DNA of 63,322 bases, filler included, from Octopus bimaculoides (taxonomy: Eukaryota): the NCBI RefSeq assembly GCF_001194135.2. It is 5 parts of 5 records of this genome, joined end to end, with 100 filler letters (N's around TTAATTAATTAA, not from the genome) between each part and the next. Parts side by side here need not be neighbours in the genome. Positions count along the whole stretch, not along the records: positions 48,412 to 58,699 come from NC_068982.1; positions 58,800 to 60,712 come from NC_068987.1; positions 60,813 to 63,322 come from NC_069005.1; 2 more parts are not named here. One strand, written 5' to 3'. Numbering within the stretch: position 1 is the stretch's first letter; every line of letters starts with the position of its first letter. Positions 49,690 through 61,805 of this stretch are shown in pieces. The notes beneath the pieces are model-generated. The model was given only the letters and a program-made list of their open reading frames with translations. It made no database searches and had not been told where the DNA came from. Made by a program: the position numbers and the translations under genes.

Positions 49690-49996
49690 ATGTTCTGGCA
49701 CTCTCTTTCTATATATCATTGGCGGGGAGATTAGTCGCTGCTGCCTCTGGCGGTTGGGTGTCTATCATTGACAAGATTGAGGAAGGTCGAAATCACGTAA
49801 CCTGGTGGTCTCGGCGTTAGAGATGGCAGGGGATTGATTATCCCCGCTAGCCATATAAACAAGTATGCATTTTGCACCAAAAGCCAATATCAAGGTTTCT
49901 CTCATGGTAAGTACTAAAGTATAGTGTGTTCTAACAGAACATCCACGTTTAAGTGGGGGCAAATATTACTTCTTGGTATTAATACTGCCTCTGTCG
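49690..49996 (+). mobile_element. HHR-bearing element, divergent homologue of the 52 kb and 61.6 kb copies (boundaries approximate)
   Basis: HHR motif, a post-cleavage GGGGA..TCCCC hairpin, and a 3' block TTTAAGTGG..CAAATAT.ACTTCT shared with 61780-61801. Confidence 0.5.
49762..49808 (+). ncRNA. Degenerate type I hammerhead (U3-A8 core), cleavage triplet AUC mutated to ACC
   Basis: CTATCA-TTGACAA-GATT(GAGGAA)GGTC-GAAA-T(CACGTA)-ACC/TGGTGG. Stems I and II pair with G-U wobbles; U16.1 is replaced by C. Confidence 0.55.
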
Positions 49997-50127
49997 TTTA
50001 TATATATATCTTTTACAACAAACACAGTACAAAGAGGTGGAAGCGATGAGAAAATATGCAATAGATAGAGAAATTAAATAAAGACCTAAAGGTATTATCA
50101 GTGAAAGGAGCGCAAGAAGGAAAAGGA

Positions 50128-50215
<88 letters not shown>

Positions 50216-50991
50216 TGCACATGCACAACACACACAAACACGCCATTCAAAATAAAACGGACGAAATTTCCATAAGGCTATGGAAAAAATTATTTGGGGT
50301 TATATAAAAAATATCAAACAACGAATTCAAAGTAGAAATGATCATTTTTTTTTTTTTTTTTCATAAAAATTAGTGACAAAGTCAAAAGCAATAATATAAT
50401 CTAATAAACATCCGCATAACCTATATCTTGTCGATAAAAATCGAAATGCCCGTTATGCTTAAGTGAAAAATATTTTATCTTGTTTCAAAGCAAGTGTTGA
50501 ACCGTAAAGTTGAACTGCTGAACTATAATAAGCATTCTTCGAAGTTTCTGATTTTGAGGCCTTTGGCACTGCACGTTTATTAATATATTGACACTTTTCA
50601 CTATTGCATATGCTTTACCGTTTTTTTCGTAAGTTCGGATACCTTAGACGTATTTTGGTATTTTTTGATAATTCTGAACTGGAATCGTTTCCTTCCGACC
50701 GTCGCATTCGATCTTAACATAATTTATAACAGGATTCTGATTTTATTTTCTCATCTTTTGATATGGATTTTATCGACCAGGTTATAGGTTATACACACAT
50801 TTATTTATGCAACATTATATTACTCTTAATGTATTTTATTTTATGTGTCTTTTTTATTTTTTTATTTTTTAATATCCCTCCTACTTTAAATTAATTTTTG
50901 ATGCTTTTACATAACCCCAAATATAATTTTACATGTTTATACATATTTCGAAATTGAATTTCGTCCGTTTTATTTACGAATGTATGAACGT

Positions 50992-51035
<44 letters not shown>

Positions 51036-51112
51036 NNNNNNNNNNNNNNNNNNNNNNNNNNNNNNNNNNNNNNNNNNNNNNNNNNNNNNNNNNNNNNNNN
51101 NNNNNNNNNNNN

Positions 51113-51168
<56 letters not shown>

Positions 51169-51411
51169 AGGATTCAAGCGAATCAGATCTTTAAATAAAT
51201 ATATAATTTCAGGATTGAAGCAAATCAGGTCCTTAAATAATAAATCAGCAAGGTCGGGATAGAGAAATTGCCATCGCGTACAAACGATATTTGAAGAACC
51301 TATACGTGCATGCTAAAGTGAACACGGATTTATACTCCGGTTGGGTGTACAATCACAAATGGCCGACTGAATATGCAACGAGTCTTCAAGGTTGCCAATG
51401 GGTACATATAT

Positions 51412-51610
51412 ATATCTTCTAATATATAAATGGTAATTTCTGTCTGTCTGTCTGTTACCATCTTAGTGCATAATCCAGCGAATCAATGTTCACGAAAGTT
51501 TGCATGCATGTTACACTAACATCAAGTGGGAAGGAAGAATGTAAAAAACCCTTTTGACTTAGCCAAAGCAAACAGGCTTTTTTTTACATTCTTCCTTCCC
51601 ACTTGGATTG
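51412..51610 (+). mobile_element. Non-autonomous Helitron-like 5' end with internal hairpin
   Basis: TCTTCTAATATATAAA followed by (TCTG)n, typical of Helitron-N starts; 26-bp perfect inverted repeat at 51523-51605. Confidence 0.45.
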
Positions 51611-51919
51611 TTTAAATGCAGTTACAACAGTAATATGTCCTTCTACTGAAATGAAATTTCAGTAAATTTTCTGTATCTTTGTGCAGCTGAAGATTGCTTT
51701 GCATTTTACATTTAATGTAATGCTCGCATTGCTTAAATAAATGGACTCGCATGAAACGATCGTACTGCAGTAACCTTCAATATCCTTGTTGTTTATTTTG
51801 ATTTTTGATCACTTTATTTTTTGGAATTGTTTGGATAATACCATACTAAATTCTGGTGCCTAAACTTAAGTACCATATTCATTTTGAATCTAAACATTTT
51901 CATATATATATATATAATC

Positions 51920-52489
51920 TTAATAATTATCGCCAAGCCAACATGGCAGTCCCAAATATAGGACGAATGCTACCGTGGATTAGCTCCAAGAGGCCATCGC
52001 CTCTAGGTAGCTATGTGACACACGAATCTGTGTCCTTTATAACCTTCGAACAGGGGAGGTCAGCAGCTTCCCCTTGCTGGTTTGGCATCTGCAGACTAGA
52101 CTAGTTTCAGGGTGTTGCCCCTTGTCAATGCAGAGCAGCCGAGCCCCAGCAGGCGTCGCTACTGACTATCTGTAGGAAGGTTATTTATCTAATTTCAGTG
52201 GAATACATCAACTGGTTTTCAGAAATAGAGTTATTAATATTTCTAAGTCTCTCTAAAGGAGACTACGGCAGCGGTACTGAAGCTGCTGACCTCCCTTGTT
52301 CGAAGGTTATAAAGGACACAGATTCGTGTGTCACATAGCTAGCTAGAGGCGATGGCCTCTTGGAGCTAATCCACGGTAGCATTCGTCCTATATTTGGGAC
52401 TGCCATATTGGCTTGACGATAATTATTAATATCCAGTACCGCTGCCGTAGTCTCCTTTAGAGAGACTTAGAAATATTAATAACTCTATT
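51920..52489. mobile_element. HHR-bearing retrozyme/Penelope-pLTR-like non-autonomous insertion with inverted two-part structure
   Basis: A (51920-52070) and A' (52279-52429) form a 151-bp inverted repeat with 4 mismatches. B (52224-52279) and B' (52434-52489) form a perfect 56-bp inverted repeat. The HHR lies in the spacer and both flanks are (TA)n. Confidence 0.7.
52088..52134 (-). ncRNA. Type I hammerhead ribozyme, U3-A8 core variant, apparently intact
   Basis: Minus strand reads UCUGCA-UUGACAA-GGGG(CAACA)CCCU-GAAA-CUA(GUC)UA-GUC/UGCAGA. Stem I is a perfect 6 bp, stem II 4 bp, stem III 4 bp, with a GUC cleavage triplet at 52096-52094. Confidence 0.8.
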
Positions 52490-52496
52490 ATATATA

Positions 52497-59466: not shown

Positions 59467-59939
59467 TGACCGAAATTACATTTGCTAACCCACTAGCCTT
59501 TCTGTTTTGAAGAATTTATGTTTTAATAAAACAGAAAAATCCCATGGTCTCCAAAATGGAATGTTTATATTTTTATCAGGATTTTAATGAATTCATGTTT
59601 TTACATGCATAATGAATGTACAGTTTTGTATATTCACTGTGTCAGTGTGTACCATCCATATCCTAGTTTCTCTAGTTGCTCAACCCACTTCTATTCACCT
59701 TGTACCTTGAGGAGCACCTGGACACCTTATCACCACAATTTATCTCTTTGCAGCTCCTACTGATCATTCTCACCCTCGTTTCGAAATGTGAGTAGCCATG
59801 TAGCTCCTGTACAAGAACCTACTCTGCTCCCCACACCACTTCTGCTTTCTCTCATAACTTAACCCCTAGTCCCCTAGCATAAAGCTGCCCACATCCCTTG
59901 GGGAATCATAGTCTTGAGAACTGCATAACGATCTCAATA

Positions 59940-60075
59940 ATGCTGGTGACATGAAAAAAGCATGCAGTACACACTGTAAAGTGGTTAGTGTTAAAAAGGG
60001 TATCTAGCTGCAGAAACCATGCCAAACCCAACACTGGAGCACACTGCAGTTCTTGAAGCCATCCAACCTGTGGAA
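59940..60075 (+). mobile_element. Old RTE 3' UTR relic
   Basis: GCTGGTGACATGAAAAAGCATG..GTGGTTAGTGTTAAAAAGGGTATCTAGCTGCAGAAACC aligns loosely with the younger UTR copies. Confidence 0.55.
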
Positions 60076-60812
60076 CACAGTCAGTAATCCTTTAGTGTTC
60101 AGATTAATCTATCAAATGTAATGCTTATTTGTTCATGTTATTTTGAATTATTCAGGTTCAAGAGTAGTGTCCACAATATTTGATTATAACTTTGTTAATT
60201 TTTTACATACAGATTTGAAATTTTGTCAGTGGGTGCTTATATACCAGTGGATTATAGTTACGGAATTTTAGCTGATCTTGCTGATTAAATTTAACTTTTA
60301 TGGGTATGTAAATTTCATTTACAGGTGTAAAAGCAATAACATATGGATAAACACTAAAATTGAAATTACTAAAATTATCCTAGATGTCAACCACCAACAA
60401 TTCTGCCACTTTTCAAGATGAGGTACATTTATTTGAATTAATTAAAATACAGGTATAATCGGTACAAGGATTTATTCTTTCTCTATACTTCACTCAAACA
60501 TTTTCATTGAAAATAAAGTACAAAACTCTTTTATTAGTCAATATACCATTGGCCATGTACTCTTATACAATTTAATGAATACATTTACATAACAGAATGT
60601 ATCTAACAAAAAAGGCTCATTAACAGGTGAAGTAAAGGTGAATACAGGTGTGCAACATACTGAAAATTAATATGTATTTCTCACTTTCACACATTATCTA
60701 TATATATATATANNNNNNNNNNNNNNNNNNNNNNNNNNNNNNNNNNNNNNNNNNNNTTAATTAATTAANNNNNNNNNNNNNNNNNNNNNNNNNNNNNNNN
60801 NNNNNNNNNNNN

Positions 60813-60887
<75 letters not shown>

Positions 60888-60900
60888 TAATAATAATAAT

Positions 60901-60963
<63 letters not shown>

Positions 60964-61014
60964 CAAAAATACAGCTCCAACTAGTACTGTCATTACTCTA
61001 CTACTACTAATACA

Positions 61015-61055
<41 letters not shown>

Positions 61056-61119
61056 AACTAATGGTAATGGTGATGATGACGACGATGAAGATGACGACGA
61101 CGACGACGATGACGACGAA

Positions 61120-61155
<36 letters not shown>
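60813..61155. repeat. Compound (AAT)n-(CTA)n-(GAC/GAT)n microsatellite
   Basis: Directly visible. Confidence 0.95.
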
Positions 61156-61519
61156 AGTCGTAATGATAATAGAATTTTCTTTAGTAACCACTTAGTGTTT
61201 ACGATAAGATGGCGAACGTTACAAACGGGGGACAGTGCGAGATTAAGCGAAAGAGCGTTTAAGCGGAAAACAACTGCAAGAATACATTCCAAAAATGAAT
61301 GATTCCCCTCCAAAGAGAACGCTTCCGTGGATAACTTGTGGAGACGCCACAAAATCCATAGTTACCCTGACCACTCAGTCAAGTGGCTTCTACTTTCTTT
61401 CTCCTTCCCTCTACGGGTGCATGCTCAGAGCATGCCCAACTTAATATTCTTTTGCCCTGATGATATTTCGCTCAGAATTTTCAAAGTGCAAACTTATTTT
61501 ATTATATAGTAAATTGTAT

Positions 61520-61805
61520 TGGGTGTGAATTGAAACAATTGTAGGCAATGTTAATAAAAAACTCTCCCCCATCGTCAATCGGTGGTTGTCACACGCTGAT
61601 GACGGGTCAATACACAGAAACTCGGGTCCGTGTGTATCACGTCAAGCTGGAGATGGGAACGTTTGATTTCCCCTTGCAAATACCGATAGGGAACAGATAG
61701 TGTGTCCGTAGCCAGCTGGAGGAGATGTCTTCTTGGGGCTACAAGCTACAGTAGCATCAACCCTTAGGGGTTAGCTACATTTAAGTGGCAAATATACTTC
61801 TCGAT
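61520..61805 (+). mobile_element. HHR-bearing element, divergent homologue of the 52 kb copy (boundaries approximate)
   Basis: HHR plus a block at 61688-61757 that aligns by eye with 52312-52382. Confidence 0.6.
61590..61634 (+). ncRNA. Minimal type I hammerhead ribozyme, canonical core, stem II partly decayed
   Basis: CACACG-CTGATGA-CGGGT(CAAT)ACACA-GAAA-C(TCGG)-GTC/CGTGTG. Stem I is a perfect 6 bp and stem III is minimal; only 3 of 5 stem II pairs remain. Confidence 0.7.

Follow-up and report, generated by a model that had tools for sequence, protein, structure and literature searches.

Non-coding hammerhead repeats of about 360 bases in Octopus bimaculoides and their probable mobilisation by Penelope-like elements

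Introduction

The repeats reported here most closely resemble the non-LTR (long terminal repeat) retrozymes of Mytilus, which have units of 350-390 bp (Cervera and de la Pena 2020, PMC7229834). According to the available text of that paper, Mytilus retrozymes are non-coding, strongly self-pairing repeats that occur in tandem copies and coexist with autonomous Penelope-like elements (PLEs), and their circles have been observed. Each unit has one type I hammerhead ribozyme, in which the proximal helix I is 6 bp long, helix II is short and helix III is palindromic. The subject of this work is a group of octopus repeats that share these traits of size, sequence organization and ribozyme form, of which three copies, designated A, B and C, lie in a 63,322-nt stretch of Octopus bimaculoides DNA (GCF_001194135.2), called the window. 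Unlike the Mytilus elements as described, the octopus copies are mostly dispersed, 5'-truncated and partly tandem or head-to-head, not arranged in long arrays. They also include units with U3-A8 cores and have a helix I of ~55 nt per strand.

A first-pass annotation of the window had proposed the three copies as an undescribed cephalopod ribozyme-retroelement family. At the level of kind this does not hold, since 350-390 bp mollusc hammerhead repeats are published as non-LTR retrozymes (PMC7229834), and the octopus units, judged by sequence, have the testable features of these elements and are a known kind. Nor are the U3-A8 core and the palindromic helix III new, both being traits described for PLE hammerheads (PMC4209133). 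No published description of cephalopod members of this kind was found in literature searches, which did not extend to Repbase and Dfam entries. Three short unit motifs are absent from the supplement of PMC8557442, and a squid genome paper, in its accessible part, gives a count of 235 Rfam hammerheads but does not analyse them (PMC6962438).

The enzyme that spreads animal retrozymes is stated as open in the consulted sections of both papers on them. In the Mytilus paper PLEs are no more than a proposed partner, and the main text, as far as available, does not contain 'truncat' or 'target site'. A 2026 preprint argues that retrozymes are non-autonomous PLEs (Li, Clavereau and Pollet, 10.64898/2026.07.22.740005). 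The conclusion on origin and mobilisation reached here is the same, but the evidence differs: in the portions of the preprint at hand it consists of co-occurrence and homology of pseudo-LTRs (pLTRs) in Xenopus, with no mollusc, while here it is an insertion signature, and no parent pLTR was found. No published retrozyme insertion signature of this type was found in a literature search.

Two groups of PLEs are also relevant. The pLTRs of endonuclease-containing (EN+) PLEs share with the octopus units a TATA-like box, a hammerhead, the U3-A8 variant, a palindromic helix III, a tail on one inverted arm and AT-rich targets, going by the available descriptions (PMC4209133, PMC3846280, PMC11167929). 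The octopus units differ from them in having no open reading frame (ORF) and in that the unit tail joins the promoter region of the next unit. Chlamys elements such as MRC1 are likewise described as non-autonomous PLEs with pLTRs and head-to-tail insertions (Craig et al. 2021, PMC8557442). In the sections consulted, the Chlamys elements resemble their autonomous families at the 3' end, whereas no such likeness was found for the octopus units, and those autonomous families mostly lack canonical hammerheads.

Results and Discussion

The three window copies belong to separate high-copy families with the same overall plan. A relaxed descriptor scan of the whole window, which consists of joined parts (joints at 31013, 48312, 58700 and 60713), finds exactly three type I hammerheads (Table 1). 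Copies A and B lie 2.3 kb apart in one stretch (G000:C2) and copy C in another (G000:C25). The unit lengths are 355 (A), 364 and 356 bp, tandem periods are mostly 355-365 bp, and the families are collinear over the whole unit at identities of 44-52%. Searches of the 2.34-Gb genome gave 2266, 2734 and 2036 first-look candidates for A, B and C, with 40 scored in each search; these figures are not copy numbers. There are at least 443 exact matches to the core of family B, at least 71 to that of family C, and at least 1511 to a 17-nt hairpin motif common to A, C and a further family, C2, with 0 control matches in each case. Family B words occur in sequencing runs of three organism codes, and family C contigs come from the same three; none of the runs listed as carrying family B words is on record as RNA. 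No long ORF attributable to the unit was found in 90 loci.

Pairwise alignment of the copies is significant for two of the three pairs. Tested 3' of the cut site against 1000 dinucleotide shuffles, the B-C alignment scores 50 (shuffle maximum 33) and the A-C alignment 35 (shuffle maximum 31), and no shuffle reaches either value. The A-B alignment scores 14, which 975 of the 1000 shuffles reach, and is not significant; for the whole element the figure is 40 of 1000. Profile matches have a median of ~30 bits for B-C and weak top values of 9.5 bits for A-B and 3.2 bits for A-C. The motif TTTAAGTGG reported from copies A and C is present in both, at 49948 and 61780. The hairpins reported at 52346-52359 and 61719-61732 are also present as described. 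The aligned segments 52312-52382 and 61688-61757 lie at nearly equal distances from the cut site, 57 and 60 nt (not 56 and 59). The first of these segments belongs to the inverted plus-strand arm of copy B; the ribozyme is on the minus-strand arm.

Family A is the oldest of the three. Mean identity to the family majority is 88% in A, 96% in B and 94% in C. Decay is CpG-biased in A and C, with a divergence in family A of 0.33 at CpG versus 0.09. Selection acts between families, on source copies, and genomic copies decay neutrally.

The ribozyme core is retained in all families. The 3-8 pair is U-A in 55 of 55 family B copies and C-G in 34 of 38 family C copies; in family A (n=30) there are 20 U-A, 3 C-G, 4 U-G, 2 C-A and one gap. 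The window copies show this variation as first reported, with UUGACAA in A and B and CUGAUGA in C. Compared with their own families, copy A is damaged in helix III, where U16.1 is replaced by C, and copy C is damaged in helix II; copy B is intact. The descriptor finds one type I motif per unit. Helix III is palindromic throughout, with self-duplex energies of -4.8 to -12.9 kcal/mol and no stable monomer hairpin; in folding predictions it arises only when two hammerheads pair with each other. In family B a 5-nt duplication ends exactly at the cut site (window 52094-52104). It is present in 42 and absent from 58 of the first 100 matches listed, counted by hand, with no intermediate length (compare L168 with L165), and it strengthens the predicted helix III duplex from -4.8 to -10.9 kcal/mol. 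The duplication may have arisen when ligation or copying slipped at the cut junction, and then have been amplified. U3-A8 cores are likewise present in hammerheads of autonomous PLE families of the same genome (L298, L300, L303, L307, L309, L313, L315).

The predicted fold of the unit is conserved while the sequence has diverged. The unit consists of a CAGTG..CACTG hairpin, a TATA-like box, helix I, two hairpins, a three-way junction and a tail, which joins directly to the next unit. Helix I carries the hammerhead at its tip. Families B and C, folded separately, give the same helix order. Between families 59-86 pairs recur, compared with neutral-simulation means of 5-22 (2-column tolerance), and in all six comparisons 0 of 60 simulations reach the real value. 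Self-pairing z-scores (4 copies each, 25 shuffles) are -5.8 to -7.1 in B, -2.2 to -3.3 in C and -1.1 to -5.3 in A, and are similar on the antisense strand. The GGG(G)A..TCCCC hairpin proposed for all three copies does correspond to a stretch 3' of the cut site. In uncut A and B RNA this stretch makes up one strand, the 3' one, of the long helix I. The local hairpin forms only after cleavage, in the 3' product, or in copy C, which is truncated.

The three-way junction is built with the tail. Its closing helix pairs the tail, which supplies the 3' strand, with sequence upstream of site 1, one of two fixed 3' end points of genomic copies, and site 1 itself lies in an unpaired linker. The alignment is clean in this helix. 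Among A, B and C, 4 of its 8 pairs change on both sides. With six out-of-model sequences added in a sequence-only alignment, 5 of 8 pairs do so and 91.7% of cells are paired; one pair is seen as G-C, A-U and U-A. Related sequences can beat shuffle controls, so weight is put on slid controls, which are 21-52% paired, and on the out-of-model families. A covarying three-way junction with a closing helix of this kind is new here.

The junction model also points to further families. Matches occur in loci fetched for other reasons (L006, L113, L153, L261, L285, L292), and by sequence there are at least three families beyond A, B and C. The group is thus old and diversified, as had been suggested, with at least six families. 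Family C2 (L006:500-1015 on the minus strand, L344, L345, L352) has a unit of 350 bp, a CUGAAGA core and a perfect ACUCGAGU palindrome, and it is young, many copies being 92-100% identical to L006. More distant families with the same junction are seen at L113:289-375, L153:1611-1900, L261:289-377 and L285:6397-6486; the L153 example is a head-to-head palindrome.

Genomic copies end at two fixed sites and insert into (TA)n. The 3' ends are bimodal in every family, at +165-176 and +184-194 in A, +170-181 and +226-241 in B, and +167-181 and +210-227 in C. Site 1 lies ~+170-176 from the cut site in all three, and site 2 is further by 25, 58 or 45 nt. Among 236 distinct arms, 163 end at a site, 42 at a gap and 31 elsewhere, and TATA or ATAT is found within 14 nt of 118 of the 163 site ends (16% in the background). 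The copies are 5'-truncated with scattered 5' ends. Arms longer than one unit make up 15 of 45, 21 of 108 and 19 of 83 (55 of 236 in total); the longest is 879 bp, and no long arrays were seen in the sampled loci. Of the distinct head-to-head pairs, 53 in number, 23 can be scored because each of their two ends lies at a site. Every one of these 23, including the insertion of copy B in the window, combines site 1 with site 2, which has a probability of ~1e-7 if the ends are independent. The other 30 are unscorable because of a gap or another end. The site windows were widened after a first pass, which kept duplicates and likewise had no same-site pair. An unselected sample contains three more pairs of one site 1 and one site 2.

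This signature suggests that A, B and C are very probably non-autonomous units mobilised by PLEs. In the published material consulted, PLEs carry the tail on one of the inverted arms (PMC3846280, PMC8557442), and the stretch between two start sites of reverse transcription constitutes the tail (PMC11167929); the one-of-each ends match both. The signature supports, from genome data alone, the view that PLE machinery moves retrozymes, and genomic evidence of this sort is new here. Target duplications of variable length, ~8-13 bp, can be seen at a few of the inverted insertions (L046, L055, L083, L210, L253), as in any target-primed event. They would also suit short interspersed element (SINE)-like or satellite-derived repeats moved by long interspersed element (LINE) machinery or by DNA-level recombination. 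Such an origin is highly improbable, as the units bring with them no poly(A) or simple-repeat 3' tail and have no Rfam tRNA or 5S head match at the gathering threshold, and it does not account for two fixed internal 3' ends, the one-of-each rule or overlapping mirror arms.

The units appear to stand by themselves and not to be stumps of longer elements. The upstream flanks of 90 loci have no common sequence except inverted unit pieces. All of 30 loci chosen in genome order by the 17-nt motif alone fit C, C2 or A. No PLE ORF lies upstream of any of the 30, and one of them is followed, 1.2 kb downstream, by a remnant of an endonuclease. The families are collinear across the tail-to-TATA junction, and the short unit therefore predates their split. 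A different explanation is that autonomous PLE families outside the sample left the copies behind as 5'-truncated ends (solo pLTRs). Every pLTR trait is present (TATA-like box, hammerhead, tail, inversions), there are many PLE families in a gappy assembly, and one B copy precedes a broken Neptune-type ORF across a gap (L091). This explanation is improbable, since copies reaching far enough 5' enter the tail of the previous unit and never a common unique untranslated region (UTR), and the PLE families examined end in their own, different minimal hammerheads, with a long helix II and a short helix I, the reverse of the octopus units.

Autonomous PLEs are plentiful in the genome, with 13,875 and 15,819 first-look endonuclease candidates. 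They appear to be Neptune-type from the cysteine linker before GIY-YIG, judged by eye and not from a tree, as that type is described in the consulted text of PMC8557442. The partner search covered a sample of the genome, namely four protein or family searches, 80 wide loci and the junction model on 137 PLE-selected loci (~20 overlapping), and did not specifically sample Naiad-type PLEs. In the sampled loci no unit is joined to an ORF for reverse transcriptase (RT) and GIY-YIG or to a unique 3' UTR. Junction-model matches in L091, L113, L153, L261, L285 and L292 were considered as PLE ends and rejected; their place and orientation vary and they look like independent insertions. L091 was also rejected as a partner, its ORF ending in its own, different pLTR. 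At L091:1322-3256 the broken Neptune-type ORF has a long asparagine-rich insert between RT and endonuclease, similar to N-rich inserts described for rotifer PLEs in the available text of PMC3846280. By eye, a CCA..TGG hairpin lies 30-50 nt before the last base of the PLE 3' ends L127, L144, L146 and L163. It resembles the second hairpin of the junction and is a lead to a partner. Tentatively, the units could be an ancient self-standing retrozyme lineage whose parent PLE is gone or unrecognisable, with the covarying junction as docking and two-site start signal for a telomerase-like RT. If this is true, each mirror-image insertion records one priming per site, which would prove directly from the genome that animal retrozymes are mobilised by PLEs, and a defined RNA structure lies behind the PLE tail.

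As to the complete route, we lean slightly towards non-LTR retrozymes of ~360 bases that pass through a circle and are mobilised in trans by PLE RT/endonuclease. Tandem copies would be transcribed from the TATA-like box. Hammerheads would pair through the palindromic helix III and release monomers, to be closed into circles by a host ligase. A PLE protein would then bind the three-way junction, located 120-195 nt downstream of the cut site, which may position the enzyme, and nick both strands of a (TA)n target. Priming would take place at site 1 for one strand and at site 2 for the other, so that the arms become mirror images with the tail on one only.

The same PLE-mobilised units could instead be copied from uncut linear transcripts of tandem source loci, with no circles and with the hammerhead trimming transcripts or working only with protein help. 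We regard this linear route as unlikely. In its favour, all full-length copies span the cut site, and no pile of 5' ends was found there. In the available text of PMC11167929, uncut RNA is the main substrate for a lizard PLE. A linear route leaves unexplained why the catalytic core, the 3-8 covariation and the palindromic helix III are kept in all families, which points to a needed cleavage step, and mussel units of the same size are described as forming abundant circles (PMC7229834). Rare variants are more often shared within one insertion than between random pairs in several comparisons: 8 of 65 tandem and 20 of 82 inverted in B (1.2% of random pairs), 14 of 226 and 28 of 265 in C (2.3%), and 12 of 251 and 2 of 238 in A (2.4%). 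This sharing fits a circle and also a homogeneous array.

Several observations weigh against the proposed route through circles and PLEs. In three RNA runs, of which ~6% of each was read, family B reads are equally frequent in the two mate directions. Their distribution mirrors the 3'-anchored genomic profile and continues into (TA)n, and neither starts nor ends of reads pile up at the cut site; family C reads show no such pile in one run. The B and C reads look like read-through and say little about circles. In L022 the two units of the tandem have different forms of helix III, which weighs against one circle copied twice because a single circle gives identical units unless one changes later, and such mixed forms suit the linear route. 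As reported in the consulted portions, a lizard PLE inserts in vitro without need for hammerhead cleavage (PMC11167929), and 8 of 9 Xenopus retrozyme dimers remain uncleaved (10.64898/2026.07.22.740005). No autonomous partner was found, and the junction model has no consistently placed match at the PLE ends of the 137 loci. No Rfam hammerhead model matches the window, two sub-regions or five loci. Column-exact covariation against a transition-biased null is significant in 1 of 12 comparisons (B on C in the three-way alignment, P 0.008). This mostly null result is attributed to register slips at 44-52% identity and a conservative null; pair-by-pair covariation is therefore firm only in cleanly aligned parts.

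Worth pursuing are the one-of-each end rule and the tail-pairing junction. With its 86 nt and its compensatory changes in six families, the junction is a candidate for an internal two-site RT start that is small and can be mutated. Since the elements are invisible to Rfam hammerhead models, similar families have probably been missed in other invertebrate genomes.

Other features of the window

Copy B lies tail-to-tail in the (TA)n end of an autonomous Neptune-type PLE. Its two arms form an inverted repeat (51917-52070 / 52279-52432). The PLE end contains a fourth hammerhead that the first-pass annotation did not mention.

Table 1. Features of the three repeats and the adjoining PLE end in the window
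Feature	Position	Strand	Evidence
Family A copy, ends at site 2 before (TA)n	49662..49997	+	unit match
TATA-like box, start of long helix I; putative promoter	49710..49716	+	sequence; aligned position in A, B, C
Type I hammerhead A (49768-49802), U3-A8 core UUGACAA, U16.1 to C, predicted inactive; cut site after 49802	49762..49808	+	descriptor scan, family comparison
Three-way-junction domain of A, tail strand included	49910..49995	+	junction model 68.4 bits; family A in model
3' end (pLTR) of autonomous Neptune-type PLE family, outside A/B/C group	51579..51915	+	78-86% to L163 and L295
Fourth hammerhead, minimal PLE type, long helix II, core at 51687, cut site after 51764	51681..51770	+	
Family B main arm, unit -185 to +174, ends at site 1	51917..52279	-	
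Long helix I of B, hammerhead at tip	52039..52184	-	inverted repeat, folding
Type I hammerhead B (52128-52094), intact U3-A8 core UUGACAA, helix III with 5-nt duplication; cut site after 52094	52088..52134	-	
Inverted 5'-truncated arm of B, unit +24 to +234, ends at site 2 (has tail), without hammerhead	52279..52489	+	
Three-way-junction domain of B; closing helix of tail and +120 region	52367..52455	+	folding, junction model
Family C copy, unit -60 to +176, ends at site 1 before TA-rich repeat	61569..61804	+	
Type I hammerhead C (61596-61628), C3-G8 core CUGAUGA, one helix II mismatch; cut site after 61628	61590..61634	+	

An inverted repeat at ~51511-51615 accompanies the PLE end, and in L136 and L149 other PLE ends are likewise followed, in the same position, by B-like pieces. 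Rfam matches to miRNA families were rejected as microsatellite artefacts. A hammerhead-like core (CUGAAGA..GAAAGAUCU) is found at 56560-56610 on the minus strand; this sequence, which also flanks L075, is probably a further repeat family. A decayed LINE reverse-transcriptase remnant at 52500-54438 on the minus strand, which we take from its motifs to be CR1/L2-like, is unrelated to the hammerhead elements.

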